64,000 nucleotides of DNA from contig CAZILW010000001.1 in assembly GCA_964540285.1 (NCBI GenBank), forward strand, positions 63,703 to 127,702, given 5' to 3'. The DNA is from an uncultured Gammaproteobacteria bacterium. GTDB lineage: Bacteria; Patescibacteriota; Patescibacteriia; Patescibacteriales; UBA12465. The stretch's first letter is position 1; each line of letters starts with the position of its first letter. The position numbers and the translations under genes were made by a program. Positions 4,859 through 59,301 of the stretch are shown here, one piece after another. The notes beneath the pieces were generated by a model. That model did no database searches and was not told the DNA's origin. It saw only the letters and a list, made by a program, of their open reading frames with translations.

Positions 4859-5635
4859 CTAATTAATTTCAAAAAAATTCAAAGCAATAGTAGTGTTAAT
4901 ATTAATATTGCTAATTAAATAAGACATTAAGTTACCATTGACTTGAGGAACAACCTCTTCGGAGTTAACATACAAAGTTCCCACTACGCCAAAAGGATAA
5001 GTATTATACTGTATTTCAACAATAATATTTGACCCTTCTAAAACCTCAACACCTCCAAATTCATTAACATCAGTTATTGTACCAACCACAAAACCATCAT
5101 CTATAATTCTAATAAAATCAAAAGTGGTATACCCTGCGCCACTATAATTTATACCAAAACTAACAAAAACACTCCCCGCCCCACCAGTGTTTCCACTACT
5201 ACCTATTATTATTCCCCCTGGGGTCATTTGTTTAGCTCCTTGGGGTAAATCTGAGACTTGTTTGCCGGTACAGAAATCTATGGTATAGCTGGCACCATTG
5301 TTTTGAGGAGTGTAGATATAGGTATTAGATGCAGATTGACAGTTTCCATCAGCTGGAGTAGGAGAGGAAGGAATATTGTACATAAATACATTATTGCTAG
5401 ATTCAGACTCTATGATACCACTATTCCATTCTTCTTCTGTAGGATATCTTCCATTTTCATTGAAGAATAGTTCTAGGGCAGTTTGTACTTGTTTCATATC
5501 GGCCATTCTTTTACTATCTCTAGCATTTTGTCTGGCTTGTTGTAGGGCTACTACAGCAAGGGTTGCTAATATACCAATAATAGCTATTACTACTAGGAGT
5601 TCGATGAGGGTAAACCCTCGTTTTTGTTTGAACAT
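4859..5635 (-). CDS. Type IV pilin-like protein (prepilin N-terminal cleavage/methylation domain) with Gly/Ser/Thr-rich C-terminal domain
   Basis: N-terminus [20 protein letters not shown] is the class III signal and N-methylation motif. The first 70 aa are about 80% identical to the N-termini of the two FISUMP-pilin genes. Confidence 0.85.
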
Positions 5636-6951: not shown

Positions 6952-9018
6952 TCAATTATACGTTTCAATATAAGCCACCGAAACTCCACCTGAAAAATTA
7001 CTATCCAAAGAGTAAAAAGAAGAAACTAGTTCACCTTTAACATTAAAAGCTCTTACATGAGGAGCTCCGCCCGGTCCAGCACCACAAATTATCTCATCTA
7101 TTCCATCCTTATTTAGATCTCCAATCGATAAATTAACTCCTCCTCTAAAATTCTCCCCGTAAGCCAATATTTTTTTTCTTTCTTTACCAAAATTATCAAA
7201 AATTTTAATTTCTGATAAACGTCCTGGTCCAGGAGAGGTTATTATTTCTTTTTTATTTTTAGTTTTTTGACCGTAAACATTAGCTACGGCTACTTTGACC
7301 CCACCATAAAAATTATTTTCATAAGCAAAAAACTGGCCTTTTAACTTAGCCTGATTATCAAAAATACGAACGTGAGGACCACCACCAACACCAGCTCCGG
7401 TTATAATTTCAGAAACTCCATCTCCATCAATATCACCAACAGCAACATTAACACCACCTCTAAATTTTTCATCATAGGCAAAAAACTGACCTTTTAAATT
7501 GCCACGAACATCAAAAATACGAACGTGAGGACCACCACCAACACCAGCTCCGGTTATAATTTCAGAAACTCCATCTCCATCAATATCACCAACAGCAACA
7601 TTAACACCACCTCTAAATTTTTCATCATAGGCAAAAAACTGACCTTTTAAATTGCCACGAACATCAAAAATACGAACGTGAGGACCACCACCAACACCAG
7701 CTCCGGTTATAATTTCAGAAACTCCATCTCCATCAATATCACCAACAGCAACATTAATTCCCCCACGAAAAGAGTCATCATAAACGTTAAAATTGTTTAA
7801 AAGTTTGCCCTTATTATTACTAAAACTTAAAGAATAAATATTTTTATCCGACTGATAACTTTTAACCTCAGCTTGAGGAGCGAACAAAAACATTCCTGAT
7901 AAATTTTGCCACTTTTCATCAGCCCATCTGGCGGAATTTAAAGCATTAACCCGGCCAATCCCTAATTGATCCTTATAAGAACTATTAAGAATATTAATAT
8001 CATCCGAACTTTTAAGTAAAATATCTAGCAATTCTCTTTGGTTTAATTTAGGGTTTATCTGCTTAATTAATCCTAGAGTTCCACTAACAACAGCGGCCGA
8101 CATAGAAGTTCCCGACCAATAGCCTTGATATTCTGAATATTTATTATTTTCTAAATCATAAAATGAAGTAGAAAAGAAACTAAGACCAGGAGCAGAAATA
8201 TCAACACACCTTGATCCATAGGATGAAAAACTTGCCTTTTGATCCATAGAATCTAAAGCTGAAACACCCAAAACAAAACTAGATGAATCATAAAAATCAA
8301 AACAAGCTGGATAACTCGAATTTTTATTTAAATTAAAATTATTATTTCCAACAGCCGAAACAACTATAACGCCAGCTCTATGAGCCCTCTTGATAGCATC
8401 CTCAAATCCCTGATTATAATCAGGCCCAGAAAAGCTCAAGTTTATAATATCAGCTCCGTTATTTACAGCATAATCAATCGCCCTAATAACATCATTAATC
8501 CTTCCCTCACCTTTTTCATTTAAAGCTCTAAGAGCCATAATCTTTGATTTACTAGCAATACCACTTATTCCCAAATCATTGTCGGTTCTAGCAGCTATTA
8601 TTCCAGAAATCATAGTTCCGTGATTTAAACCATCATCATTAGAGCTAGAAGATAATACGGGTCGAGGATTTGGTGTGTTTTCAACAAAATTCCAACCAAA
8701 AATATCATCTATAAAGCCGTTTCTATCATCATCTAGACCATTTTCAATTTCTAAATTATTAATCCAAATATTTCCATGCAAATCAGGATGATCAATATCA
8801 ACTCCCGAATCAATAACCGCTATAACAGGAGACTCGCCCCTAAGATCATAACCCCAAGTATAAGAAGCTCCTATTTTTTTTAAATACCATTGATTTTTAT
8901 AATACTCATCATTTGGTGATGAAAAAGTTTGAGCCTTAACTAAATTAAAATTAGATAAAAATAAAAAAAACGCTAAGAAAACTGCCGCTACTTTTTGTTT
9001 GGCTTTAAATCTTAGCAT
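6952..9018 (-). CDS. Secreted subtilisin-like serine protease (S8) with C-terminal FG-GAP repeats
   Basis: Signal peptide. Catalytic triad motifs VIDSGVD (Asp), HGTMISG (His), GTSMSAAVVSG (Ser). Five C-terminal repeats FRGGVNVAVGDIDGDGVSEIITGAGVGGGPHVR (FG-GAP with DxDGDG Ca-binding loop). Confidence 0.85.
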   Translation of the reverse strand: MLRFKAKQKVAAVFLAFFLFLSNFNLVKAQTFSSPNDEYYKNQWYLKKIGASYTWGYDLRGESPVIAVIDSGVDIDHPDLHGNIWINNLEIENGLDDDRNGFIDDIFGWNFVENTPNPRPVLSSSSNDDGLNHGTMISGIIAARTDNDLGISGIASKSKIMALRALNEKGEGRINDVIRAIDYAVNNGADIINLSFSGPDYNQGFEDAIKRAHRAGVIVVSAVGNNNFNLNKNSSYPACFDFYDSSSFVLGVSALDSMDQKASFSSYGSRCVDISAPGLSFFSTSFYDLENNKYSEYQGYWSGTSMSAAVVSGTLGLIKQINPKLNQRELLDILLKSSDDINILNSSYKDQLGIGRVNALNSARWADEKWQNLSGMFLFAPQAEVKSYQSDKNIYSLSFSNNKGKLLNNFNVYDDSFRGGINVAVGDIDGDGVSEIITGAGVGGGPHVRIFDVRGNLKGQFFAYDEKFRGGVNVAVGDIDGDGVSEIITGAGVGGGPHVRIFDVRGNLKGQFFAYDEKFRGGVNVAVGDIDGDGVSEIITGAGVGGGPHVRIFDNQAKLKGQFFAYENNFYGGVKVAVANVYGQKTKNKKEIITSPGPGRLSEIKIFDNFGKERKKILAYGENFRGGVNLSIGDLNKDGIDEIICGAGPGGAPHVRAFNVKGELVSSFYSLDSNFSGGVSVAYIETYN
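7290..7760. repeat. Perfect 153-bp tandem repeats (about 3 copies) inside the S8 protease gene
   Basis: Unit starting gaggaccaccaccaacaccagctccggttataatttcag recurs at 7374, 7527 and 7680 with 100% identity over two full units. Encodes identical 51-aa FG-GAP repeats. Confidence 0.85.
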
Positions 9019-15700: not shown

Positions 15701-16489
15701 CTAAATTTTAGATTGTAAAAATAATAGCAATTCTTCAAATTTATTAACATTATTTAAAAGACTTAAATTATCTTGGTTCTTCAGTAGATTTTTAATATTT
15801 CCTTCCTGCTCTTTAAGAGATTTTAATATTTTATTCAAAATATTTTTACTTAAATCATCAGAATTTTTATTTTCACTCATATTTTTAACCAAAGAAATCA
15901 AGTCATCTTTAGTTAAACCCAAAAAGAAAGCTGGAATATTTTTCATTTTACTTATTTTTATTTTCTGATCATTATCAAGTTTTATACCGTAATCTAATTT
16001 AACTCCTCCTTTCAAGTTTATTTTCTCCACTTTTTCTCTTTTTTTATCAGAACCATCATTATCACCCATCCCCAAAACCTGATCAAAACCACAAACCACA
16101 AAACCAGTCTTTTTATCAACTAAAACATTATCAACTCCATGCTCGTAATCATCATACCTTGAAGACCTAACAACAATAAAACGATCACCTATTATTTTAT
16201 TTAAAAAAACAGTTATCGCTAATTCGGCCATTTGCGGAAAATCTTTTTTATCTCCATAAACTTCACTTTTTACAGAAACAATATCTTTGTGAAGTTTCTC
16301 GTCTTCACCTATCATCTTAATACTTCCGTCCTTTTCAATAAAATCTCCGTAAAAATCGTTAAACTCTTTAGATATTTTTTCTAATTCATTATTTAAAAAC
16401 CTAAAAGACTCTTCCATATTTATATGGGGCTTTTTATCTTTAGAAAATTGGTTCAAATCTATTTTTCCTAATATTTTTAATTCTGACAT
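15701..16489 (-). CDS. Hypothetical protein (262 aa)
   Basis: Long ORF with no recognisable motif; Lys/Asp-rich. Confidence 0.5.
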   Translation of the reverse strand: MSELKILGKIDLNQFSKDKKPHINMEESFRFLNNELEKISKEFNDFYGDFIEKDGSIKMIGEDEKLHKDIVSVKSEVYGDKKDFPQMAELAITVFLNKIIGDRFIVVRSSRYDDYEHGVDNVLVDKKTGFVVCGFDQVLGMGDNDGSDKKREKVEKINLKGGVKLDYGIKLDNDQKIKISKMKNIPAFFLGLTKDDLISLVKNMSENKNSDDLSKNILNKILKSLKEQEGNIKNLLKNQDNLSLLNNVNKFEELLLFLQSKI

Positions 16490-16504
16490 AAATTTATAAA
16501 TTAT

Positions 16505-19015
16505 TTAATTTAATAAAGTAGTAAAAGCAACAACATTACCATAAGAAATTCCCTTCTCGTTCACAGCATAAGCTCTGAAATAATAAGTCGTGTTAGGATG
16601 TAAAATATCAATAGTTTTGCTAAATACTGAATTATGATTGGTTATTCTAATAATATTTACATTGTTGGAGATATATTCAAGATTATTATGATCGGCCCAA
16701 ATAATTCCTCTGGCATAAACCGTACCACCTCCATTGGCCGTCACCTGACCATTTAATGTGGCTACATTAGCGGTCAAATTGGTAGCTGACTCAGTGGACA
16801 CGGTAGGAAGAGATATTGCAGGAAAGTCTTCTCCTTTTATGCACCTAACGGAAATGCCACTATAGTCGTACGCATTGTTATATATTGGATTAACGTCAGT
16901 ATTTGTTAAAATATAGTAACGAGTAGTGCTAAGAGTAGCAATTGATAATGTCCAAAAATTAGCCCGAGTTCCAATATAGGAAAAATTAGTCGTCTTAATT
17001 CCGGATGGTAAAATTGAAAAATTAAAATAATTAGTACCAACAGAAGAAGAATTGTCCCAACGAGGATGATCACTAACATTACAAACACCGCCTAAGGAAG
17101 AATCGACCATTCTACAAGATTTTAAGGTTAGAGAATTGTTTGATCCAATGGAATTATTAAGCTCAACAAAATCAGAGTAAAAAGGAACTCTCCATCCAGG
17201 CGGACAAATTCTTCTAGGGTCAGAAACGGCTAACATTGAATAAAGTTTTCCGTAGGATGCATAACTAGAATTATCCTCATAAAAAGTCCAAACAGGATAA
17301 TTTAAATTAGACCAAGAACCAGCCTGGTTTGTAATAGAATCTCCATTTCTAAATTTGTCCGTTCTTAGGTTTTCGGCGAGCCAACATTTAGTTCCAACAC
17401 CTATTGTTTGATAAATGTATCCGTTGTAATCAACTGCATAACTCCCAACACAAGGATCTAGGGTAGTAAAAGCAACAACATTACCATAAGAAATTCCCTT
17501 CTCGTTCACAGCATAAGCTCTGAAATAATAAGTCGTGTTAGGATGTAAAATATCAATAGTTTTGCTAAATACTGAATTATGATTGGTTATTCTAATAATA
17601 TTTACATTGTTGGAGATATATTCAAGATTATTATGATCGGCCCAAATAATTCCTCTGGCATAAACCGTACCACCTCCATTGGCCGTCACCTGACCATTTA
17701 ATGTGGCTACATTAGCGGTCAAATTGGTAGCTGACTCAGTGGACACGGTAGGAAGAGATATTGCAGGAAAGTCTTCTCCTTTTATGCACCTAACGGAAAT
17801 GCCACTATAGTCGTACGCATTGTTATATATTGGATTAACGTCAGTATTTGTTAAAATATAGTAACGAGTAGTGCTAAGAGTAGCAATTGATAATGTCCAA
17901 AAATTAGCCCGAGTTCCAATATAGGAAAAATTAGTCGTCTTAATTCCGGATGGTAAAATTGAAAAATTAAAATAATTAGTACCAACAGAAGAAGAATTGT
18001 CCCAACGAGGATGATCACTAACATTACAAACACCGCCTAAGGAAGAATCGACCATTCTACAAGATTTTAAGGTTAGAGAATTGTTTGATCCAATGGAATT
18101 ATTAAGCTCAACAAAATCAGAGTAAAAAGGAACTCTCCATCCAGGCGGACAAATTCTTCTAGGGTCAGAAACGGCTAACATTGAATAAAGTTTTCCGTAG
18201 GATGCATAACTAGAATTATCCTCATAAAAAGTCCAAACAGGATAATTTAAATTAGACCAAGAACCAGCCTGGTTTGTAATAGAATCTCCATTTCTAAATT
18301 TGTCCGTTCTTAGGTTTTCGGCGAGCCAACATTGATTACCTATAACAACAGTTTTATAATTATAACCATTATAAACAATACTTTGACCACAATTTAAAGA
18401 GTCAACAACACATTCACCACCCTGACAAACATAACCATTATTACAAGATGGCTCACATAAATACTGGGAATCTATCAAATCAAAACTATTGTTAGTTTCT
18501 TCGCCACTATTGTTCTGATCACCAGGCTCATCACCGCCACCATTATTATCACCACCACTATTATCTCCCAAGCAGTCATAATTCATTATACCTCCAGGAG
18601 TAGCACATTTTAAACCTTCAGATAGGTTAGAGACATCATTTCCTAGACAAAATGATAAAGTGTAGGTAGAATTATCTTCGCTTACTTGATAGTAGAAGTT
18701 ATTTTGACTGGCATCACATACTCCATCAGCTGGATAAGGAGCAGAAGGAATATTATACATAAGTACTTGACCACTGGAAGTAATAAGAGAACCGCTTAAC
18801 CATTCTTCTTCAGTAGGATATCTTCCCTGTTCATTAAAAAATAATTCTAGGGCTGTTTGAGCTTGTTTTATATCAGCTAGTCTTTTACTATCACGAGCTC
18901 TAGAGCGAGCTTGTTGTAGGGCTACCACAGCTAGAGTAGCAAGTATTCCAATAATAGCTATTACTACTAATAACTCGACGAGAGTGAAGGCTTTTTTATA
19001 CTTTATTGGATTCAT
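16505..19015 (-). CDS. Prepilin-N-terminus protein fused to two FISUMP domains and Fn3-like modules
   Basis: N-terminus [20 protein letters not shown] (prepilin motif); Gly/Asp/Asn-rich linker. Two 315-aa repeats each contain CWLAENL...GKLYSMLAV...CPPGWRVP...SVRCIK, which matches the TIGR02145 FISUMP domain pattern. Confidence 0.8.
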   Translation of the reverse strand: MNPIKYKKAFTLVELLVVIAIIGILATLAVVALQQARSRARDSKRLADIKQAQTALELFFNEQGRYPTEEEWLSGSLITSSGQVLMYNIPSAPYPADGVCDASQNNFYYQVSEDNSTYTLSFCLGNDVSNLSEGLKCATPGGIMNYDCLGDNSGGDNNGGGDEPGDQNNSGEETNNSFDLIDSQYLCEPSCNNGYVCQGGECVVDSLNCGQSIVYNGYNYKTVVIGNQCWLAENLRTDKFRNGDSITNQAGSWSNLNYPVWTFYEDNSSYASYGKLYSMLAVSDPRRICPPGWRVPFYSDFVELNNSIGSNNSLTLKSCRMVDSSLGGVCNVSDHPRWDNSSSVGTNYFNFSILPSGIKTTNFSYIGTRANFWTLSIATLSTTRYYILTNTDVNPIYNNAYDYSGISVRCIKGEDFPAISLPTVSTESATNLTANVATLNGQVTANGGGTVYARGIIWADHNNLEYISNNVNIIRITNHNSVFSKTIDILHPNTTYYFRAYAVNEKGISYGNVVAFTTLDPCVGSYAVDYNGYIYQTIGVGTKCWLAENLRTDKFRNGDSITNQAGSWSNLNYPVWTFYEDNSSYASYGKLYSMLAVSDPRRICPPGWRVPFYSDFVELNNSIGSNNSLTLKSCRMVDSSLGGVCNVSDHPRWDNSSSVGTNYFNFSILPSGIKTTNFSYIGTRANFWTLSIATLSTTRYYILTNTDVNPIYNNAYDYSGISVRCIKGEDFPAISLPTVSTESATNLTANVATLNGQVTANGGGTVYARGIIWADHNNLEYISNNVNIIRITNHNSVFSKTIDILHPNTTYYFRAYAVNEKGISYGNVVAFTTLLN
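16518..18333. repeat. Two tandem copies of a 945-bp unit with about 870 bp of 100% nucleotide identity, inside the pilin-FISUMP gene
   Basis: Copy A 16518-17388 is identical to copy B 17463-18333 (offset 945). The identical false ORFs 16906..17088 and 17851..18033 reflect this duplication. Confidence 0.9.
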
Positions 19016-19152
19016 TTATATAAAATTAATTATTTCTTTTTTCAAACTTTTCACTCTTCTTTTCTTTTAATCTCTCAAAAATTAAATAAACCAAAACAAC
19101 AGAAAAAATAAGAATAAAAATAAAATCCCAAAAATTAAACATATTTTTACAA

Positions 19153-19467
19153 TTATTTAAGTTTGACAGCTGTTCCATAAGCGAGTATCTCTGAAGCCCC
19201 TTGGGTAATCATGGAGGTGTTTAGCTTCATGCCAATTATAGCATCAGCCCCCAACCTTCTTGCATCCTCTTCCATTCTATAGATAGCTTCCTCTCTGGAC
19301 TCAGCTTGTAATTTTGTATATTCACTTATTTCTCCTCCAACAATATTTTTTAAACCAGCAAAAATATCACGACCAATATTTCTAGCCCTGACAGTACCAC
19401 CCCGAACAACACCCAAAATTTCTTTTATCTCCCTTCCAGGAATTTGCTCTCCCGTTGTAATAATCAT
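19153..19467 (-). CDS. YbjQ/UPF0145-family protein
   Basis: 104 aa with typical UPF0145 sequence MIITTGEQIPGREI...GGEI..Y...L...R..A...M...A...GADAIIG. Confidence 0.75.
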   Translation of the reverse strand: MIITTGEQIPGREIKEILGVVRGGTVRARNIGRDIFAGLKNIVGGEISEYTKLQAESREEAIYRMEEDARRLGADAIIGMKLNTSMITQGASEILAYGTAVKLK

Positions 19468-41796: not shown

Positions 41797-42984
41797 TTAT
41801 TTGATAATTTTAGCTACAACACCAGCTCCAACTGTTCTACCACCTTCACGAATAGCAAATCTTTGCTTTTCTTCAAGGGCAATAGGGGCAATTAATTTAA
41901 CTTTTAGATTAACTGTATCACCAGGCATAACCATCTCAACTCCTGCTGGCAATTCAATTTCACCAGTTACATCAGTTGTTCTGATGTAGAATTGAGGTTT
42001 GTAACCTTTAAAAAATGGTTTATGTCTTCCACCTTCATCTTTACCTAAAATATAAACTTCAGCTTCAAATTCTGTATGCGGTGTAACTGTTCCTGGTTTT
42101 ACTAAAACTTGACCTCTTTCTACTTCATCTTTTTTAGTACCTCTTAAAAGTAAACCAGCGTTATCACCAGCCTCACCTCTGTCCAAAGATTTGTTAAACA
42201 TTTCTACTCCAGTAATGGTAGTTTTTTTTGTTTCCATTAAACCAACGATTTCAACCTCGTCACCAACATTAACAACACCTCTTTCAATTCTACCTGTACA
42301 AACAGTTCCTCTTCCTTCAATTGAGAAAATATCCTCAATCGGCATTAAGAATGGTTTGTCCAAATCTCTTTCTGGAGTTGGAATATAATCATCCAAAGCT
42401 TTAAGTAAGTCTGTTATTGGTTGCGCATCTGGACCTGTTGGATTCTCTAAAGCCTTTAAAGCACTTCCTCTGATAATTGGAGTAGCATCTCCAGGGAATT
42501 CGTATTTCTTTAATAAATCTCTAATTTCTTCTTCAACTAAATCAATTAACTCTTTATCCTCTACCATGTCACATTTATTTAAAAATACAACGATGTAAGG
42601 AACACCAACCTGACGAGCCAACAAGATGTGCTCTCTAGTTTGAGGCATAGGACCATCAGTAGCTGAAACCACTAAGATAGCACCATCCATTTGAGCGGCA
42701 CCAGTGATCATGTTTTTAACATAATCAGCGTGACCAGGACAATCAACGTGAGCATAGTGTCTACCTTCTGTTTCATACTCTTGATGAGAAGTAGCAATTG
42801 TGATACCTCTTTGCTTCTCTTCAGGAGCATTATCAATCTCATCAACTCCTCTTTGAGTTGCTTTCATACCCTGAGCATTAGCTACAGTTAAGATAGCTGC
42901 TGTCAAAGTTGTTTTCCCATGATCAACGTGACCAATTGTTCCAACGTTGACATGAGGCTTACTGCGTTCAAATTTGTCTGCCAT
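41797..42984 (-). CDS. tuf: Elongation factor Tu
   Basis: [30 protein letters not shown] start and GTPase motifs. The start lies internal to the 41797..43032 ORF. Confidence 0.95.
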
Positions 42985-43122
42985 TTTTTTGAAAACACGA
43001 CCTCCTTTTGGAGTTACTTGCCTCAAAGGCAACCAGCCGTTTTTATTAATTATTAATAAATTTATTTATAAACAAGCAAAAATAGCTAAAGAATTAACTA
43101 TTTCCAATTTGTTTTATTCAAT

Positions 43123-44640: not shown

Positions 44641-45840
44641 TTAATTTTGATAGTATTCTTTAATATTGTTATACAAACCAAAAACCTCTTCCGCTGATAA
44701 AGGCTTATTAAAATACATTGCATCGTTTATACGACCTTGAAAATAGGATTCGGTAGTGCTACCACCCTTGCCTAGAAACATAGGCTTGTCAGTTCCTATA
44801 TTCATCACGGTATTTTCGATTTCAGATATCAACTGACCATTCTTGTAAAATCTACGAAAATAACCATCATCAGTTAAAACAATAAAATGCCAACCATCTG
44901 GGTATTTACTTAAAACATAATCTTCTATGGACCACCATTGCCTGTCAACAGAATCAATTGAATTTTGACTAGCAATTTTACCAGAATAAAGGGCTAGTCC
45001 CCAACGACCCAAACTCAAACCAGTACCCCACAACAATCCTCCTGAACCCTGTGGTTTTGTACCATCCAACCAAAGAGCTAAAGAATATTCTGTTTGTTTT
45101 GGCATTGTTGAAATATTAAAAAAATCATCAACTCCATCGAAATAAACAAAGCCGTCAATTAGTTTAGGCTGCAAGTCAATATTAGATTGTTCAGCATTTT
45201 TTCTTTGATAAGAAAGGTCAAAGATTGTTTGAACCATTTCACTGTTATCAGGATTAAGCTTAACCCCACCATCAGAAGACAAAAAGAGAATTAAATTATT
45301 ATAAATGTTGCTATTTTGAAAATAACTAAACAAATTATAAGTCTTACCTCTATTTAAGATGACTCCATTCCCACTACTAACAAAATCTAAATAATCCAAA
45401 CAGGCGCCTCGACAACAAGAAAAGTCAAAAATACCAGCAGAACTAAAACATTTATTTCCAGGACTAAAATTTTCATTAAAATTTTCAACCTCTAAAGCAA
45501 TATCATAACTTAAATCCGAAGAATTAAAAAAATAATCAACACCCTCAGGAATGTTTTCTAAAAAAATTAAACCAGAAGAACTACCAACAAGAGCTTGTCC
45601 CGAAATCAATTGTTCAGGATATCTGCCTTCAACATTTTTATAACTCTCTAAGGCTATTTGAACTTGGCTTATATCGTTAATTTTTTTTAAATCTTTACCT
45701 CTACTTCTAGACCTAGAAATGTTAACCATCACTAAAGTAGAAATTAAAGCAATGATAAAAACGACCACTAAAATTTCAATAAAGGTAAAAGCCTTTTTGT
45801 TTTTAAATAGATAAATATTCATATCGTTAATATAAAACAA
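44641..45840 (-). CDS. Prepilin-N-terminus protein fused to LamG/ConA-like lectin domain (paralogue)
   Basis: N-terminus KKAFTFIEILVVVFIIALIS; C-terminus GRINDAMYFNKPLSAEEVFGLYNN. Confidence 0.8.
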   Translation of the reverse strand: MFYINDMNIYLFKNKKAFTFIEILVVVFIIALISTLVMVNISRSRSRGKDLKKINDISQVQIALESYKNVEGRYPEQLISGQALVGSSSGLIFLENIPEGVDYFFNSSDLSYDIALEVENFNENFSPGNKCFSSAGIFDFSCCRGACLDYLDFVSSGNGVILNRGKTYNLFSYFQNSNIYNNLILFLSSDGGVKLNPDNSEMVQTIFDLSYQRKNAEQSNIDLQPKLIDGFVYFDGVDDFFNISTMPKQTEYSLALWLDGTKPQGSGGLLWGTGLSLGRWGLALYSGKIASQNSIDSVDRQWWSIEDYVLSKYPDGWHFIVLTDDGYFRRFYKNGQLISEIENTVMNIGTDKPMFLGKGGSTTESYFQGRINDAMYFNKPLSAEEVFGLYNNIKEYYQN

Positions 45841-45921: not shown

Positions 45922-48006
45922 TTATTTACCAGCCTTTTCCTTGATTTGCTCTAAAATATTTCTTGGAACTTCATTATAATGAGAAAATTCCATTGAATAA
46001 TTAGCCCTACCTTGACTCATTGATCTTAGAGATGTTGCATAACCAAACATTTCTGCTAGAGGAACTTTAGCTAAAACAACTTTAGCATTTCCTCTGTCAG
46101 TCATTTCTTCTATTTGACCTCTCTTGGCATTTAAATCTCCGATTATATTCCCCATGTATTCTTCTGGGGTAGTAACCTCGACCTTCATAACTGGTTCAAG
46201 TAAAACTGGGCTAGCCTTTTGACAAGCATCTTTGAAGGCAAAAATAGCAGCCATTTTAAAAGCGATTTCAGAAGAGTCTACCTCGTGATAAGAACCATCA
46301 TAAACAGTAACTTTAACATCAACCATTGGATAACCAGCTAAAATACCACTCTCCATAGCTTCTTTAACACCCTTTTCAATAGCTGGGATATATTCCCTTG
46401 GAATAGCACCGCCCTTTACCTCATCAACAAATTCATAAGTTTTTCCACCTTCATTAACTTGCGGTTCTAATCTTAAATAACAATGTCCGTATTGACCACG
46501 ACCACCAGATTGTTTAGCATACTTATGCTCAGCCTCAGCTTTTTGCTTAATAGTTTCCCTGTAAGAAACTTGAGGATTTCCAACATTAGCCTCAACTCCA
46601 AACTCTCTTCTCATGCGATCAACGATGATATCCAAGTGAAGCTCTCCCATACCAGAAATCAAAACTTGTCCGCTTTCTTCATCACTTTCAACTCTAAAAG
46701 TTGGGTCTTCTTCAGCTAGTCTATTTAAAGCAATACCCATTTTTTCTTGATCAGCCTTAGTTTTTGGCTCAACAGCAATCTTAATGACTGGCTCTGGGAA
46801 AACAATTGATTCAAGTAATAAAGATTTTTTCTCATCACATAAAGTATTTCCAGTTGTAGTGTCTTTTAGTCCAATAACAGCAGCGATATCTCCTGCTTTG
46901 ATTTCTTTAATTTCTTCTCTGTGATTAGCATGCATACGAACTAAACGACCAATTCTTTCTTTATTGCCAGTAGAAGAATTAACAATATAAGAACCAGAAC
47001 TCAAAACTCCACTGTAAACCCTAACAAAACAAAGCTTACCAACAAAAGGGTCAGTGGCAATTTTAAAAGCCAAACCAACAAAAGGCTCTTTTTCATCAGG
47101 CTTAACAATTGTTTTTTTAGTTTCATCATTAACATCAGTAGCTTCTATCTCTGGAACATCAAGAGGTGAGGGTAAATAATCACAAACAGCATCAAGAGCT
47201 TTTTGAACACCAATATTTTGTAAAGCTGTTCCACATAAAACAGGATAGATTCCATTAGATATAACCCCCCTTCTTAAAGCTGATTTCAATTCTTCAACAG
47301 TAATTTGCTCACCACTTAAATATTTTTCAGTTAAAGTATCGTCAAATTCAACAACTCTTTCAACCAATTCTCCATGATACTTTTCAACCTTATCAATCAT
47401 ATCAGCTGGGATTTCAGTTTCAATTATATTCTCGCCAAAATTTCCTTCGAACTTATAAGCCTTTTTTTCTAAAACATCAATAACTCCAGAAAAAGTACTT
47501 TCAGAACCAATTGGCAATTGATAAGCAACAGCTTTTGGATTTAATCTTTTTTTAATAGAGTCCAAGCTCATATAAAAATCAGCGCCAGTTTTATCCATCT
47601 TATTAACAAAACAAAGTCTTGGAACTTTATACTTATCAGCTTGACGCCAAACAGTTTCCGATTGAGGCTCTACACCTTGAGAACCATCAAAAACAGCAAT
47701 AGCACCATCTAAAACACGAAGTGATCTTTCAACTTCTACAGTAAAATCAACGTGTCCAGGAGTATCAATTATGTTTATCTTATTATCCTTCCAAAAACAA
47801 GTTGTGGCAGCTGAAGTAATAGTAATACCTCTTTCTTTTTCTTGTTCCATCCAATCCATATCAGCGGCTCCATCATGAGTTTCTCCGATTTTATGTTTTT
47901 TACCAGTATAAAAAAGAACTCTCTCGCTAAAAGTTGTTTTTCCGGCATCAATATGAGCCATGATACCAATGTTTCTAAATTTATCCAGCGTATAATCTTG
48001 CGACAT
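45922..48006 (-). CDS. fusA: Elongation factor G
   Basis: [17 protein letters not shown] and full five-domain EF-G; 694 aa. Confidence 0.95.
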
Positions 48007-48093
48007 ATGTTATTTAAAGAGTTTTAAGAGTTTTAGTACTTTCAAGACTCTTAGGATACTTATATTTAATTATTATATTATATATTTAATTCT

Positions 48094-48314
48094 ATATTTT
48101 GAGTGAAATTTGAGGAAAAGACGAGAAGCGAAGTGAGTCGTATTTTAATACGATGAACGAGCCTCGCAGTCTTTGACAAAAAATTTCACCAAAACTTTTT
48201 CTCCTAAAACTTTATATTTTGAGTGAAATTTGAGGAAAAGACGAGAAGCGAAGTGAGTCGTATTTTAATACGATGAACGAGCCTCGCAGTCTTTGACAAA
48301 AAATTTCACCAAAA
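48094..48314. repeat. Two tandem copies of an ~101-bp hairpin-forming element (18-bp spacer) between rpsG and fusA
   Basis: Copy 1 48094-48194 and copy 2 48213-48314 are identical. Each has terminal inverted repeats gtgaaattt/aaatttcac and an internal tcgtat-ttta-atacga hairpin. Confidence 0.85.
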
Positions 48315-48326
48315 TTTAAAGTTTTA

Positions 48327-49410: not shown

Positions 49411-51612
49411 TTATTCCTTAATACATCTAATATAACGACCATAAATAGAACTAATAGGCACAGTACTTGTCGTCAAAATTATTGATCCGCCAGTGTTGTA
49501 TATATAATACAAACCTGTCCCAAGATCGTCTATGGTTCTCGTCCAAAGCCAAAAACCACTTCCAAAATAAGGCCACTGTGTTGAATATTTATGACCACCA
49601 GGAAGCAAAGAAAAGCCAAGATCATCGGTGCCATAAACAGTATCAGATGCCCAATATGGATGCTCTGAAGTTACACATTCACCTCCCAAAGGAGAATTAA
49701 CTTGGCGACACGATCTTAAATTGTAAACATTATATGCACCAATACTGTTGACCAAAGAAATAAAATCATCTCTGGTTGGCACTATCCAGCCATCAGGACA
49801 AACCCCCCTAGGATCAATTATGGTATAAGAAGAATAAACATAACCATAAAGATTTCCATAAGTAGAAAGAAAGTCATACAAAGGATAATTCGCTCCACTC
49901 CAACTTCCAGTTACCCGAGGAATACTGTCACCATTTTTAAACTTATCAGTTTTAAGATTTTCTTTAAACCAGCATTGATCGCCGATAGCAACCGTTGGAT
50001 AATTATAACCATTATAAGAAACAGAACTTAAGCCCGAACAAGGATCTGTGGTTGTAAAAGAAAGAACATTGCCATAACCTACTCCAACTTCATTGACAGC
50101 ATAAGCTCTGATATAATAAGTTTTTCCAGCTTGAAGACCATAAAAAACATCAGAAACAAAAGAGGAGGAACTTAAAGTTGAATGTAAAAACTTTGAATTA
50201 CCATCACCGATTAAGGGATTATCATTTTCACTCCAGACAACACCACCAGAATGAACAGGAGATCCGCCATCATTACTTATTGTTCCCCCAGAAAAAGCTC
50301 TATTTGCTGAAACATTATTTACAACACCAGTAATAACGCTAGGGATGGTTTTAGGGCTAGTGTCTGTTTTTTTAATACATCTAATATAGCGACCATAAAT
50401 AGAGTCAATAGGAACAGTACTCGCCGTCGAAATTGTTGGTCCGCTTGTATTATATATATAATACAAGCTAGACCCAGTACTATTAGCAGTTGAAGTCCAA
50501 AGCCAAAAACCACTTCCAAAATAAGGCCACTGTGTTGAATATTTATGACCACCAGGAAGCAAAGAAAAGCCAAGATCATCGGTGCCATAAACAGTATCAG
50601 ATGCCCAATATGGATGCTCTGAAGTTGCACATTCACCTCCCAAAGGAGAATTAACTTGACGACACGATCTTAAATTGTAAACATTATACGTACCAATACT
50701 GTTGACTAAAGAAATAAAATCATCTCTGGTTGGCACTATCCAGCCATCGGGACAAACCCCTCTAGGATCGGTTATAGTATGAGATGAATAAACATAACCG
50801 TAAAGATTTCCATAAGTAGAAAAAAAATCATAAGCTGGATAATAAGAAGAATTACTATGATAAGAAATCCAAGAAGGTATAGTTGATCCCCAGCTTCCAG
50901 TTACCCGAGGAATACTGTCTCCATTTTTAAATTTATCAGTTTTAAGATTTTCTTTAAACCAGCATTGAGCTCCGATGCCTACTGTTTGGTAGGTGTGGCC
51001 GTTATAGGTGATATTTTGACCACATTCAAAAACATCAAGAACACAAGAACTGTTTTGACAAATATAACCAGACTGACAATCAGGATAACAAACATTGAGA
51101 TTTGGATTTTCATTATTATCTCCTCCTCCGGTGTCTCCGCCTCCAGTGTCTCCGCCTAGGCAATCATAATTCATTATTCCTCCAGGAGTAGCACATTTTA
51201 AACCTTCAGATAGGTTAGAAACATCATTGCCTAGACAAAATGATAAAGTGTAAGTAGAGTTATCTTCGCTTACTTGATAGTAGAAGTTATTTTGACTGGC
51301 ATCACATACTCCATCAGCCGGATAAGGAGCAGAAGGAATATTATACATCAGTACTTGACCACTTGAGGTAATAAGAGAACCACTTAACCATTCTTCTTCA
51401 GTAGGATATCTTCCCTGTTCATTAAAGAATAATTCTAGGGCTGTTTGGGCTTGTTTAATATCAGCTAGTCTTTTACTATCACGAGCTCTAGAGCGAGCTT
51501 GTTGTAAAGCTACAACAGCTAGAGTGGCCAGTATTCCAATAATAGCAATTACTACTAGAAGCTCAACGAGGGTAAAAGCTTTTTTGTTTTTTTGAAAATT
51601 GTTTTTAAACAT
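49411..51612 (-). CDS. Prepilin-N-terminus protein fused to two FISUMP domains (paralogue of 16505..19015)
   Basis: The first ~150 aa are nearly identical to 16505..19015. Two FISUMP units (CWFKENL...GNLYGYVYS...CPDGWIVPT...RCIK) are about 90% identical to each other. Confidence 0.8.
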   Translation of the reverse strand: MFKNNFQKNKKAFTLVELLVVIAIIGILATLAVVALQQARSRARDSKRLADIKQAQTALELFFNEQGRYPTEEEWLSGSLITSSGQVLMYNIPSAPYPADGVCDASQNNFYYQVSEDNSTYTLSFCLGNDVSNLSEGLKCATPGGIMNYDCLGGDTGGGDTGGGDNNENPNLNVCYPDCQSGYICQNSSCVLDVFECGQNITYNGHTYQTVGIGAQCWFKENLKTDKFKNGDSIPRVTGSWGSTIPSWISYHSNSSYYPAYDFFSTYGNLYGYVYSSHTITDPRGVCPDGWIVPTRDDFISLVNSIGTYNVYNLRSCRQVNSPLGGECATSEHPYWASDTVYGTDDLGFSLLPGGHKYSTQWPYFGSGFWLWTSTANSTGSSLYYIYNTSGPTISTASTVPIDSIYGRYIRCIKKTDTSPKTIPSVITGVVNNVSANRAFSGGTISNDGGSPVHSGGVVWSENDNPLIGDGNSKFLHSTLSSSSFVSDVFYGLQAGKTYYIRAYAVNEVGVGYGNVLSFTTTDPCSGLSSVSYNGYNYPTVAIGDQCWFKENLKTDKFKNGDSIPRVTGSWSGANYPLYDFLSTYGNLYGYVYSSYTIIDPRGVCPDGWIVPTRDDFISLVNSIGAYNVYNLRSCRQVNSPLGGECVTSEHPYWASDTVYGTDDLGFSLLPGGHKYSTQWPYFGSGFWLWTRTIDDLGTGLYYIYNTGGSIILTTSTVPISSIYGRYIRCIKE

Positions 51613-51621
51613 TGATAAAAA

Positions 51622-53478
51622 TTATTCTAAAACTGCTTTAATTCTTCTAACACCAGAACTAGAACTCTCTTCTTTTTGTATTTTAAATACACCTAAATTC
51701 TCCAGGCTTTCAACATGCGGACCACCACAAATTTCTTTGGAAAAATTACCAACAGAATATACTTTTACCTTCTCTCCATATTTGGACTCAAAAACACCAG
51801 TCGCCCCCATTTGCTTAGCTTCATCTAAAGTCATCTCACTACAATCAACTGCTAGTCCCTTTTGAATATTTTCATTTACTAAATCTTCAACTTGTTTTTT
51901 TTGTTCATCAGTCATTTTTTCTGGATGAGAAAAATCAAAACGAAGTCTTTCAGCAGTAATATTGCTTCCTCTTTGAGCGACATGATCACCCAAAACCCTC
52001 CTAAGAGCTTCTAGTAGTAAATGAGCTGCGGTATGAAGCTTGGTTGTCTCCTCGCTTTGATCAGCCAACCCCCCCTTGAATTTACCAGCGCTAGCCGTTT
52101 TAGATAATTCCTGATGTTTGTTTAAAGCTTGATTATATTCATCCAAAAAATTATCTGATTTAGAAATATTTTTTTCTTCTATAATCTCTAGTGTCATCTC
52201 GAGTGGATAGCCATGACTTTGAAATAAATTAAAAGCAATTTCACCATTAATCTTTTCCCCTTTTTCAACCAAGCTATTTAAAACTCTTTCCCCTTTTTCT
52301 ATGGTTTTGTTAAATTTCTCTTCTTCTTCATTTAATGATTTGAAAATAAATTCTCTATTTTTATCTAATTCACTATAAGAATCTTTATAGAATTCAACTA
52401 TAACTTGGCTAAGCTCAGCAATAAGATTTTTTTGTTCTATTTTTAATTGTTTCAAATAACGCACCGCCCTTCTGATAAGACGTCTAATAATATAACCTTG
52501 GTCGGTATTGGATGGGCTAAGCCCCTTGTCATCTCCCAATAAAAAAGTAGCACCTTTTATATGATCAGCTATAACTTCAAAAGCTTTTTTATTATCCTCA
52601 TATTTAAGTCCAGAAATATTTTCGAGTCTATCTACAATAGAACCAAGAGAGTCAATTTTAAAAATATTGCCTAAATTATTTTTTACCATTACAATTCGCT
52701 CCAGTCCCCCACCAAAATCAACATTTTTGTTTTCTAATTCTTTCCAACCATCGACTGTTTTTTGGTATTGCATAAAAACAGAATTGCCAATTTCAATAAA
52801 TCTTCCACAATCACAATTCAAATGACAATGCTCACCAAATTTTGGATCATGTTCTTTGCCGGTATCATAAAAAGTTTCACTATCTGGACCACCTAATTCT
52901 CCAATGGCATCGCCTCTCTGCCACCAATTTTTGTCTCGATAAGCAAAGATTCTATCTTTGGAAAAATCGAGCTCTATACCAGGCCCTTCATCTCCCTTGG
53001 TAATTGTTTCTGGACCTTCACTGGCTTCAATTCCGTATTTTTTGTAAATATTTTTTAAAATTGCAATAGACTCTTCATCTTTGACTATGCTTTTGCCGTC
53101 ACCAACATAAACAGTCTGATAAATTTTATTAATATCAAAGCCTAGCTCTTCTATTAAAAATTCAAACCACCAATTGAGTTGCTCTTCTTTAAAATAATTA
53201 CCCAAGCTCCAATTACCAAGCATTTCAAAAAAGGTATTATGACGACCATCACCAACGTCGTCAATATCTTCGGAACGGAAACATTTCTGACTATTTACTA
53301 AACGAAGGCCAGCTGGATGTTTTTCACCTAAAAGATATGGCACCAAAGGAAACATACCAGAATTGGTAAATAAAAGACTAGAATCATTTTCAGGAATGAG
53401 CGATGAAGACGATATCAGGGCGTGTTGTTTTTTTTGAAAAAATTCAAAATATTTCTGTCTAATTTCACTGGTTTTCAT
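51622..53478 (-). CDS. alaS: Alanyl-tRNA synthetase, compact form (618 aa, lacks C-Ala domain)
   Basis: Catalytic-core motifs FTNSGM and WGGP-like region; editing-domain HTAAHLLLEALRRVLGDHVAQRGS. Confidence 0.85.
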   Translation of the reverse strand: MKTSEIRQKYFEFFQKKQHALISSSSLIPENDSSLLFTNSGMFPLVPYLLGEKHPAGLRLVNSQKCFRSEDIDDVGDGRHNTFFEMLGNWSLGNYFKEEQLNWWFEFLIEELGFDINKIYQTVYVGDGKSIVKDEESIAILKNIYKKYGIEASEGPETITKGDEGPGIELDFSKDRIFAYRDKNWWQRGDAIGELGGPDSETFYDTGKEHDPKFGEHCHLNCDCGRFIEIGNSVFMQYQKTVDGWKELENKNVDFGGGLERIVMVKNNLGNIFKIDSLGSIVDRLENISGLKYEDNKKAFEVIADHIKGATFLLGDDKGLSPSNTDQGYIIRRLIRRAVRYLKQLKIEQKNLIAELSQVIVEFYKDSYSELDKNREFIFKSLNEEEEKFNKTIEKGERVLNSLVEKGEKINGEIAFNLFQSHGYPLEMTLEIIEEKNISKSDNFLDEYNQALNKHQELSKTASAGKFKGGLADQSEETTKLHTAAHLLLEALRRVLGDHVAQRGSNITAERLRFDFSHPEKMTDEQKKQVEDLVNENIQKGLAVDCSEMTLDEAKQMGATGVFESKYGEKVKVYSVGNFSKEICGGPHVESLENLGVFKIQKEESSSSGVRRIKAVLE

Positions 53479-57798: not shown

Positions 57799-59301
57799 AT
57801 GAAGAAGGAGATAATAAAAAAAGAAAACTCAGACCTAGAAATTATCGATTTAGCAGAAGAAAATATTGAAGAAAAAAACAATATTTTTGAAAAAGCTAAA
57901 AGGATAATAAACGAAACTAAAGAAAAAATAAACCAACAAAAAGAAGATAATAAAAAATCTTATGAAAAACTTCAAAGTGATTTGAAGAATTTTTTAGTTG
58001 CTATAGAGGGAACAAAAAGTATTTATAAAAAAGACCAACATGCTTTTCTAGAAAAACAAGAAAATTATCAACCTCTAAAAGAGATAAATGAAATACAAAA
58101 AGAAATTGACCTTCTAGTAAATGAATTAGAATTAAAAATAAATAAGATAGAAAATAAAATAAAACAACATCCAAGCCCAGAGGAAATTAAATCAAGGTTG
58201 GAAGTTAGAGATTCAAACCAAGAAGAGCAAGAAAGATTTTCAGAAAGAATACCAAGTCACCAAAAGGAAGCTCTCAAAATTTGCTCTAAAATATTTAATA
58301 AATGTCAATATCCTTGGTATCTAACTGGTTCTATAGCTTTTTTAATAAACGCCTCTGAAAGCAAAAAACAACCAGATGATATTGATATTATTTTTCATGA
58401 AAAAGATTTTGATGAAATGTCACAAGAATTTAAAGCATTAGGATTTGAGACAGGAATAGCAAAAAATACTGGTTGTCCCTTTATAAAAGGAAAAATTAAA
58501 ATTGAAGATGAAAATGGAGAAACAAAAGAAATTGAGGTAGAGGCCTTTGGACAAAAAACCGAAGAACCCAATGGTTTAATAAACCCAGGGGCAAAAAACA
58601 CTAAATATGAAATAATTAAAAATAAAGTATCTGAAAATGAACAAGAAGATTTTAATATTTTAGACAAATCTGGCCAGGTGGAATTATATTTTAAGAGCCT
58701 GGTAAACGAAATAAAAGGTTTTAATTTTGAAAGCTTTTTAGAAGAGGGTGGTGAAGCTGGAAATGAAAACAAATCCAAAAAATTTATCAACAGAATAGCT
58801 AATCTTTTTGAGTTAAATGATAACAACAAACTAGAAATAATAAAAAAAACAAGAGGGCTTTGTAAAAACGAAGAAGAGGTTTTATTACTAAGAAACTTTA
58901 TTGATATTAGCAAAAAGTTTAAAGAAGAAAAATACAAAGGAAAGGGTTTGGAAAATGTCTACAACGACGGTCATCTACAAATAGCCGTAGAAAATTTAAA
59001 AAAAGAAATCAGTCGAGAGCAGAAAATTCTAAAAGACAGCTATTTAGAAATATCAAATGAAATGAAAAAAGCCAGTCTAATGAACGAAAAAGAAAGACTA
59101 GATCTAATCAACAAAATAGACCAAGAGATTTATTCAAAAAAAGATATGATCGATAACTTCTTAAAAAACCACAAAGAAATAAATAGTGAAAACGAAGGAA
59201 ATAAAGATTTACCAATTTATATTTTTATCAGCAAGTTTAAAGAAAATTTTATAAATCCCTTTTGCGAAAAAATGGCTAACTTTAAAAAGGAATTAATTTA
59301 A
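57799..59301 (+). CDS. Lys/Glu-rich coiled-coil protein with possible minimal nucleotidyltransferase-fold core
   Basis: 500 aa. Central LTGSIAFLINASESKKQPDDIDIIF fits the hG[GS]-x(9-14)-DhDh NTase motif. Confidence 0.35.
   Translation: MKKEIIKKENSDLEIIDLAEENIEEKNNIFEKAKRIINETKEKINQQKEDNKKSYEKLQSDLKNFLVAIEGTKSIYKKDQHAFLEKQENYQPLKEINEIQKEIDLLVNELELKINKIENKIKQHPSPEEIKSRLEVRDSNQEEQERFSERIPSHQKEALKICSKIFNKCQYPWYLTGSIAFLINASESKKQPDDIDIIFHEKDFDEMSQEFKALGFETGIAKNTGCPFIKGKIKIEDENGETKEIEVEAFGQKTEEPNGLINPGAKNTKYEIIKNKVSENEQEDFNILDKSGQVELYFKSLVNEIKGFNFESFLEEGGEAGNENKSKKFINRIANLFELNDNNKLEIIKKTRGLCKNEEEVLLLRNFIDISKKFKEEKYKGKGLENVYNDGHLQIAVENLKKEISREQKILKDSYLEISNEMKKASLMNEKERLDLINKIDQEIYSKKDMIDNFLKNHKEINSENEGNKDLPIYIFISKFKENFINPFCEKMANFKKELI

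Follow-up and report, generated by a model that had tools for sequence, protein, structure and literature searches.

The stretch analysed here, referred to as the window, comprises 64,000 nucleotides (nt) of ~31% GC DNA from an uncultured organism labelled a Gammaproteobacteria bacterium in GenBank and assigned to the Patescibacteriota by GTDB (assembly GCA_964540285.1, contig CAZILW010000001.1, positions 63,703 to 127,702 of the forward strand). Nearly all genes of the window lie on the minus strand, and one of them, at 16505-19015, encodes a protein of 836 amino acids (aa) that starts as a type IV prepilin and continues with two FISUMP domains, each followed by an Fn3 domain. We read it, with good but not full confidence, as a modular type IV pilin from an ultra-small bacterium of the Patescibacteria (candidate phyla radiation, CPR), with two Fn3-spaced FISUMP binding heads and an internal repeat that arose by concerted evolution. 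The gene and its parts are as follows.

16505-19015, minus strand: whole gene, modular type IV pilin, 836 aa (open reading frame (ORF) list, Pfam and NCBIfam scans and cluster look-up; the same protein as P0122 from an NCBI metagenome-assembled genome, MAG)
18566-19015, minus strand: pilin module, aa 1-150 (leader MNPIKYKKA, mature F10, E14 at +5, hydrophobic alpha-1N helix, then a predicted GspG-like globular part)
18395-18565, minus strand: linker, aa 151-207 (G/D/N-rich low-complexity sequence, then a Cys-rich segment with C187, C191, C197 and C202; assigned by composition and Cys positions)
17777-18394, minus strand: FISUMP domain 1, aa 208-413 (C-type-lectin-like fold)
17450-17776, minus strand: Fn3 domain 1, aa 414-522
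16832-17449, minus strand: FISUMP domain 2, aa 523-728 (second stretch matched by the hidden Markov model, HMM)
16505-16831, minus strand: Fn3 domain 2, aa 729-836, and stop codon (phmmer domain mapping)
17463-18333, minus strand: promoter-proximal copy of the perfect repeat, codons 228-518 (offset-945 comparison)
17389-17462, minus strand: 74-bp unique junction encoding 'LDPCVGSYAVDYNGYIYQTIGVGTK', a family-typical Fn3-to-FISUMP joint (54% nt identity to 18334-18407)
16518-17388, minus strand: distal copy of the perfect repeat, codons 543-833 (offset-945 comparison)

Both the class-III prepilin N-terminus and the two FISUMP domains named in the original prediction score above curated HMM cutoffs. 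The N-terminus matches N_methyl with 30.8 bits (Pfam cutoff 21.2) and TIGR02532 with 29.3 (NCBIfam cutoff 16.3), and two stretches of the protein match TIGR02145 (FISUMP; 176.2 bits, cutoff 41.65) and PF09603 (Fib_succ_major/FISUMP; 196.1 bits, cutoff 33.9). The prediction had proposed searches with TIGR02145 and the Pfam N_methyl model and had staked its case on a FISUMP match; both searches were significant. It had also treated the 315-aa unit as FISUMP. FISUMP is indeed present, but the unit holds an Fn3 domain as well, which had been overlooked: the Fn3 HMM matches two stretches (29.2, cutoff 25) and the domain has a beta-sandwich fold. The N-terminal sequence, MNPIKYKKA followed by FTLVELLVV, carries a class-III signal, with F10 predicted to start the mature protein and E14 at +5, and residue 1 of the pilin chains in the PDB (GspG 5wda, PilA and geopilin) aligns to residue 10 of the query. 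With a pilin at aa 1-150, a G/D/N-rich linker, whose cysteines are kept in homologues, and FISUMP and Fn3 domains beyond it, the protein fits the definition of a modular pilin sensu Raynaud et al. 2021.

When the window was aligned to itself with a shift of 945 nt, one unbroken identical run appeared, 16518-17388 = 17463-18333, of 871 bp with 0 mismatches. Both copies are in frame within the single minus-strand ORF and code for 'CWLAENL...VVAFTTL', so the ~870-bp perfectly identical internal duplication of the original prediction is confirmed. A separate repeat search of the window, in which reported lengths stop at 300 nt, recovers this pair too, and self-BLAST reports the pair at 98.25% over 916 nt in an alignment that runs into diverged junction sequence; TRF does not list a repeat with a 945-bp period because its maximum period is 500. 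An exact repeat of 871 bp in 64 kb of DNA of this composition cannot be the product of chance. The junction between the copies is of a different character. Compared with the stretch that precedes the first copy (18334-18407), it is identical at 40 of 74 nt and 8 of 25 aa (32%). It codes for 'LDPCVGSYAVDYNGY.Y', and the Fn3-to-FISUMP joints of relatives, 'DPCSGLSSVSYNGY' and 'DPCEGESYVDYNGH', are alike (from the paralogue described below and from P0005/P0007); the pattern 'DPCxG...YNGY' marks it as a distinct joint typical of the family. As the junction is both diverged and family-typical, the two-unit layout must be old, with only the body of the unit homogenised. We therefore think that the repeat most probably reflects concerted evolution of an array that already had two units, homogenised either by gene conversion or by unequal crossing-over.

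The original prediction had also warned that the true copy number may differ from that of the assembly, and single-unit versions were indeed found in other assemblies. The 90%-identity cluster of the protein contains forms of 836, 526 and 521 aa together with a 67-aa partial fragment (P0121), which stems from another MAG whose contig ends inside the pilin module. An 8425-nt contig (L002; ENA ERZ27252296, k141 MEGAHIT) has the same gene order as the window and one unit; against window positions 23245-14553 it is 100% identical save for an exact 945-bp deletion, with flanks of ~7.7 kb. Two further contigs, identical to each other, carry one unit each: a 3.5-kb k141 MEGAHIT contig (L001; ENA ERZ27247376) and a JGI contig (L083). 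They share the C-terminal 2.1 kb of the gene with the window at 100% identity, as they do the unit and 790 nt downstream. Their 5' part is different. Set against window 18770-19015, L001 1-1390 departs in the first 82 codons (~10% of nt, mostly synonymous; 17 synonymous and 2 non-synonymous codon changes over the 150 codons compared), and an M50 peptidase gene lies upstream, a context shared by the relative P0004 in contig L084. We read L001/L083 either as an assembly chimera or as a recombinant whose heads were swapped through the conserved pilin module. A scan of metagenome contigs with a 35-mer from the repeat end returned only L083, with no further two- or three-unit contigs.

Recombination between perfect repeats would yield exactly the structure of L002, and the one-unit form is thus best read as a recombinational pop-out of the two-unit form. 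The most serious competitor to this interpretation, somewhat unlikely in our estimate but carrying real weight, is that the differences are assembly effects: the true unit number would be fixed at two or more, and either the one-unit contigs are collapsed or the window contig miscounts its units. Both L001 (3.5 kb) and L002 (8.4 kb) were assembled as k141 contigs by MEGAHIT, and the repeat far exceeds short-read length; the P0121 contig is broken inside the pilin module; and L001 looks mosaic, with other 5' codons and another upstream gene giving way to 100% identity. On the other side, a unique in-frame junction cannot be an assembler's invention, so that at least two units must exist in the source population; at least three are possible. 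A cycle in a de Bruijn graph would moreover normally break contigs at the repeat borders, whereas L002 reads through cleanly with flanks of 100% identity.

In the suggested comparison with homologues, repeat number varies: relatives have 2, 3 or 4 FISUMP domains each. The closest full-length relatives have the architecture pilin-(FISUMP-Fn3)n-FISUMP, with n = 1 in P0004 to P0007 (~740 aa), n = 2 in P0003 (1064 aa) and n = 3 in P0001 (1409 aa). By phmmer domain mapping they end in a FISUMP domain, whereas the 836-aa protein ends in Fn3. The contigs of P0001 and P0003 are named 'contig_N', a style that we take to be that of long-read assemblers. The 579-aa members of the paralogue's cluster were considered as domain-number variants and rejected; they are N-terminally truncated gene calls that start past the pilin module. 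A single-protein scan of genome contigs gave no relative, and an alignment-based scan, which used generic prepilin N-terminal patterns only, returned mostly prepilins of Planctomycetota/Verrucomicrobiota; neither was informative about taxonomy or repeat variation. The heads of the 836-aa protein are only ~45% identical to the FISUMP domains of any other protein, and its pilin module is 50-77% identical to those of many. The nearest pilin modules carry the names Falkowbacteria or Patescibacteria, and proteins matching at 90% identity or above are named 'Patescibacteria group bacterium'.

Homogenisation of heads is also seen elsewhere in the family. In 6 of the 8 proteins compared, a FISUMP copy resembles its partners in that protein more closely than it resembles copies from other proteins. 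The two copies of a 733-aa paralogue in the window are 84% identical to each other and at most 74% identical to those of its orthologue P0004; P0005 and P0007 retain diverged copies (53%). At the DNA level the P0004 gene (L084 6583-6969 and 7573-7959) has a 387-bp exact tract inside a 648-nt repeat of 88.6% identity, and the 733-aa paralogue has a 132-bp exact tract inside a repeat of 84% identity; the exact tracts in P0003 and P0001 measure 49 bp and 47 bp. Since such tracts far exceed the length expected from the mean identity, they suggest recurrent intragenic gene conversion, and the 871-bp tract would be the extreme of a continuum. The 387-bp tract of P0004 is independent evidence for gene conversion in the family.

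The alternative that the repeat is a simple, very recent tandem duplication of a single-unit gene, with the one-unit contigs ancestral, would account for the 0 mismatches across 871 bp and for the existence of one-unit versions of 100% identical sequence. A junction formed in this way should consist of the unit's own end sequences, and the observed junction matches the 5' part of the unit at only 40 of 74 nt. Loss of one of the two units through recombination between the repeats also reproduces L002 exactly, and the reverse step does not. We rejected the simple duplication because the 74-bp junction is not built from the ends of the unit. The 'very recent duplication' offered earlier as an explanation is thus unlikely: an old and diverged junction is the pattern of a pre-existing two-unit array that has been homogenised.

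Considering these observations together, we propose the following mechanism. A prepilin peptidase would cut after Ala9, and the hydrophobic alpha-1 helix and the ~150-aa GspG-like module would polymerise into a type IV filament, co-assembling with other pilins whose alpha-1 helix is nearly identical. The flexible G/D/N-rich linker and the Fn3 spacers would hold two identical heads of C-type-lectin-like (CLec) fold off the filament. Their likeliest target would be a glycan or protein ligand exposed on the surface of a host cell, a partner cell or a substrate. Two identical heads may give extra avidity and reach, and the diverged heads of relatives perhaps bind several ligands. Homologous (RecA-type) recombination would keep the heads identical and sometimes alter their number, making the array unstable. 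In this scheme we infer pilus assembly and processing, the adhesin role, the nature of the ligand and the status of the one-unit contigs as real alleles.

The best matches of the pilin module to pilin families are of GspG type (TIGR01710, E 1.6e-13; PF08334 T2SSG, 21.7 bits on aa 37-130 with a Pfam cutoff of 21) and to ComGC (E 1.9e-7), and would fit a pseudopilin of a secretion or DNA-uptake apparatus, resembling Com or the type II secretion system (T2SS), and not an adhesive surface pilus subunit. We find this improbable. The GspG, PilA and ComGC equivalog scores are all well under their NCBIfam cutoffs (GspG 50.8 bits against 88.85; ComGC 31.2 against 75), and a 680-aa extracellular lectin/Fn3 extension is ill-suited to a short periplasmic pseudopilus. 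To our knowledge, CPR cells are generally thought to be without an outer membrane, which we also count against a pseudopilin. Saccharibacteria furnish a precedent of a surface type IV pilus with lectin-like pilins (PMC11623550).

Modelled alone, the FISUMP domain reached a predicted local distance difference test score (pLDDT) of 92.3. The solved structures nearest to this model are TvpA, the Lcl C-terminal domain, InvE and Bd2740 (a Bdellovibrio fibre tip), all of which are binding modules; the top structural matches also include PvdO, CarF, an FGE paralogue, TaqVP, Mtd and intimin. The similarity of the model to solved CLec/FGE-like domains points to membership of that fold superfamily. The predicted fold suggests a CLec-fold binding module, not a canonical C-type lectin, whose ligand could be a glycan or a protein. 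Across 33 homologous FISUMP domains variability is highest at aa 380-399 (3.0-3.1 bits per column), immediately before the conserved 'G.SVRC.K'. In our reading this presumably corresponds to the position of the C-terminal variable region in CLec-fold targets of diversity-generating retroelements (DGRs), and by that correspondence aa 380-399 is the likely ligand face.

The original prediction had described FISUMP as a domain with no assigned function. It is not wholly uncharacterised: Wu et al. 2018 place Fib_succ_major together with DUF1566 and DUF823 in a C-type-lectin-fold class of DGR target domains called CLec2 (PMC5758913), and our model agrees with this fold. It is nonetheless very improbable that the heads here are DGR targets and the repeat a template/variable pair. 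That survey found many diverse DGRs in CPR metagenomic data (PMC5758913), and the structural neighbours of FISUMP include TvpA, TaqVP and Mtd, but we rejected the hypothesis because no reverse transcriptase was found, nor Avd or any other DGR part, in the 42 window ORFs scanned against Pfam (the ribosomal-protein block at ~28.6-41.7 kb lay outside the scan), because the copies are identical, with zero adenine-specific mismatches, and because 871 bp of coding sequence over two domains is unlike a template/variable repeat pair of ~100-150 bp. On this evidence the 836-aa protein is not to be classed as a DGR variable protein, with a remote chance that a DGR elsewhere in the genome acts on it.

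Several points weigh against our reading of the gene as a pilin with binding heads homogenised by recombination. The residue at -1 of the predicted cleavage site is Ala, where Gly is usual. Among the scanned ORFs there is no PilB/C/D/M/T pilus machinery, and filament assembly is therefore assumed. A promoter scan of 16300-19300 stayed at the level of shuffled sequence (13 found, 12.4 expected), and no terminators were found in the scan of the same interval. The Ca2+/sugar motifs EPN, QPD and WND are absent from the whole 836-aa protein, so that carbohydrate binding is no better supported than protein binding. The 'perfect' identity of the copies could in part be an effect of the assembly consensus that erased real differences; if an assembler passes through a single graph node twice, the copies come out identical, and the identity thus needs read support. 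The one-unit contigs are short-read MEGAHIT assemblies and could be collapsed, a possibility that we take seriously while judging it the lesser one. Finally, a location at the tip of the filament has no specific support, and tip and shaft are equally possible. The original prediction had proposed a binding module displayed at the pilus tip. Display of a binding module is in keeping with the fold and with published work on modular pilins, but the tip does not follow, as the pilin module is of the major-pilin/GspG-like type, not GspK-like, and incorporation along the shaft is equally possible. The flexible linker permits either placement of modular pilins (Raynaud et al. 2021, PMC8179133).

Upstream of the gene lie YbjQ, an [FeFe] hydrogenase and a Complex1_51K/NADH_4Fe-4S (NuoF-like) protein, and downstream a 262-aa ORF without family assignment, followed by a CCA-adding enzyme and a cyclophilin. 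In L001, L002 and L083 the 262-aa ORF likewise accompanies the pilin gene, and it is conserved in related Patescibacteria MAGs; it is possibly co-transcribed with the pilin gene. P0122 and the proteins encoded beside it belong to an NCBI MAG contig of 177,191 nt. The window yielded no hits to Rfam and no tRNA genes. Four further prepilin-type modular pilin genes lie within the window; they are listed here with the 262-aa ORF.

15701-16489, minus strand: 262-aa ORF with no Pfam match, 15 nt past the pilin stop codon (ORF list and Pfam scan)
4859-5635: prepilin-type modular pilin, 258 aa
43458-44615: modular pilin, 385 aa, N_methyl and LamG
44641-45840: modular pilin, 399 aa, N_methyl and LamG
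49411-51612, minus strand: paralogous modular pilin, 733 aa, pilin-FISUMP-Fn3-FISUMP

Over the shared pilin module (18566-18997 and 51160-51591), the 836-aa pilin and this 733-aa paralogue match at 144 of 144 aa, with 28 synonymous codon differences between the two coding sequences, giving an NG86 synonymous divergence (dS) of 0.37 and a non-synonymous divergence (dN) of ~0.003. Substitution rates of this kind suggest very strong purifying selection on the pilin module. We argue that complete identity despite a dS of 0.37 means that both genes are functional and that their products must fit one filament.

Three of the modular pilins lie in or beside the str operon, in the order AlaRS (51622-53478), the 733-aa pilin, rpsL, rpsG, fusA (45922-48006), the two LamG pilins and tuf (41797-43032), a placement that is unusual for genes of surface adhesins. 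In the relative L084, too, infA-rpmJ-rpsM-rpsK-rpsD-rpoA has two such neighbours, a pilin-FISUMP gene and another modular pilin. Between fusA and rpsG there is a 105-nt direct repeat (48093-48197 and 48213-48317; 99% identical, period 120) with no Rfam match. Elsewhere in the window, positions 7286-7782 hold three tandem 153-nt units, 84-91% identical, in a gene at 6952-9018 for a 688-aa Peptidase_S8/FG-GAP product, another repeat-bearing probable surface protein. A 500-aa ORF at 57799-59301 is one of the rare plus-strand ORFs; its matches to OrfB_IS605 (E 0.006) and DUF7277 are weak, and it may be a TnpB-like remnant. The AT skew increases across 56-64 kb.

We take IPR011871 to be the FISUMP entry. 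Among 1,219 modular pilins with 264 architectures, Raynaud et al. 2021 (PNAS, PMC8179133) list IPR012902-IPR011871 as the fifth commonest architecture, with 40 proteins and 'no clear function'. The fusion of a pilin to FISUMP is not new; it is already catalogued and fills dozens of 50%-identity clusters. Searching 1.84 billion representatives exhaustively by phmmer with aa 1-413 returned 963 proteins at E <= 1e-30; the best 150 of these 963 include ~30 clusters of 360-400-aa proteins that match the pilin module and, over another stretch, apparently FISUMP, as expected of a pilin with a single FISUMP domain. Pilin-FISUMP proteins are abundant in metagenomes, and NCBI already uses the name 'FISUMP domain-containing protein'. 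The 836-aa protein shares with the catalogued modular pilins the class-III signal and pilin module, a short, flexible linker and, at the C-terminal end, a predicted ligand-binding module that is not pilus-specific, and CPR lineages (Falkowbacteria, Magasanikbacteria and others) are prominent carriers of such proteins. It differs from them in its two FISUMP heads, in the Fn3 domains between and after them, and in a repeat that is perfectly homogenised; the architecture list of Raynaud et al. has no entry with more than one IPR011871 or with IPR011871 and Fn3. Known modular pilins that act as adhesins include PilB (pilin and vWA) and PilC (pilin and ConA-like lectin) of S. sanguinis (PMC8179133).

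Comparable too are the minor pilins PilX1 and PilX2 of Saccharibacteria (TM7x), which are likewise CPR type IV pilins with large lectin-like C-terminal domains. PilX2 is required for efficient host binding, and sugars inhibit binding (PMC11623550). The TM7x heads are beta-jelly-roll and beta-propeller domains, whereas those described here are C-type-lectin-like with Fn3; the PilX1 and PilX2 genes lie in pilus loci, whereas the 836-aa pilin gene sits amid housekeeping genes; and the phylum differs. The solved CLec-fold modules with which FISUMP was compared, namely T. denticola TvpA (2y3c), the Legionella Lcl C-terminal domain/DUF1566 (8q4e), Yersinia InvE/invasin/intimin, Bd2740 (8oks) and Mtd of a Bordetella phage, share only 8-16% sequence identity with it and are carried by an autotransporter, a lipoprotein or a phage fibre in place of a pilin anchor; no DGR was found here in the scanned ORFs. 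Adhesins whose repeats vary in number and are homogenised by recombination are known from group B Streptococcus (alpha C protein), Staphylococcus (Bap) and enterococci (Esp). In these proteins, too, whole domains are repeated in tandem and in frame as long, near-identical units whose copy number is altered by recombination. Their repeats are numerous, however, and their variation has been recorded in isolates, whereas the 836-aa protein has two units and its variation is deduced from metagenome assemblies only.

As the architecture is already catalogued and the behaviour of the repeat is typical of surface adhesins, this is no new kind of system. It is mildly unusual in its multi-unit layout and offers a well-documented case of concerted evolution. 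The more interesting aspects are the invariant stalk across dispersed modular pilins, the possible switching of heads and of copy number, and the presence of pilin genes in the str operon. More speculatively, and in our view doubtfully, the locus could belong to a system of host recognition in an episymbiotic CPR bacterium in which recombination drives a 'one stalk, many heads' arrangement. If so, the frozen stalk shared by five modular pilin genes in 64 kb would serve both as an assembly interface and as a homology arm for head swaps between loci, of which the L001/L083 mosaic may be one. The intragenic repeats would switch the number of heads between one and two at high frequency, and the resulting phase or length variation at the population level would tune host range or evade recognition by hosts or phages.

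The locus bears on how CPR/Patescibacteria find and hold their hosts, to which, in Saccharibacteria, type IV pili with lectin-like pilins contribute. It is a clear example, outside Saccharibacteria, of what we read as a pilus subunit with C-type-lectin-fold heads, and it gives evidence that head sequence, and possibly head number, may be reshuffled by recombination while the stalk stays invariant. The 315-aa FISUMP-Fn3 unit and the variable aa 380-399 are concrete constructs for binding assays, and unit counts would provide a population-genetic test.

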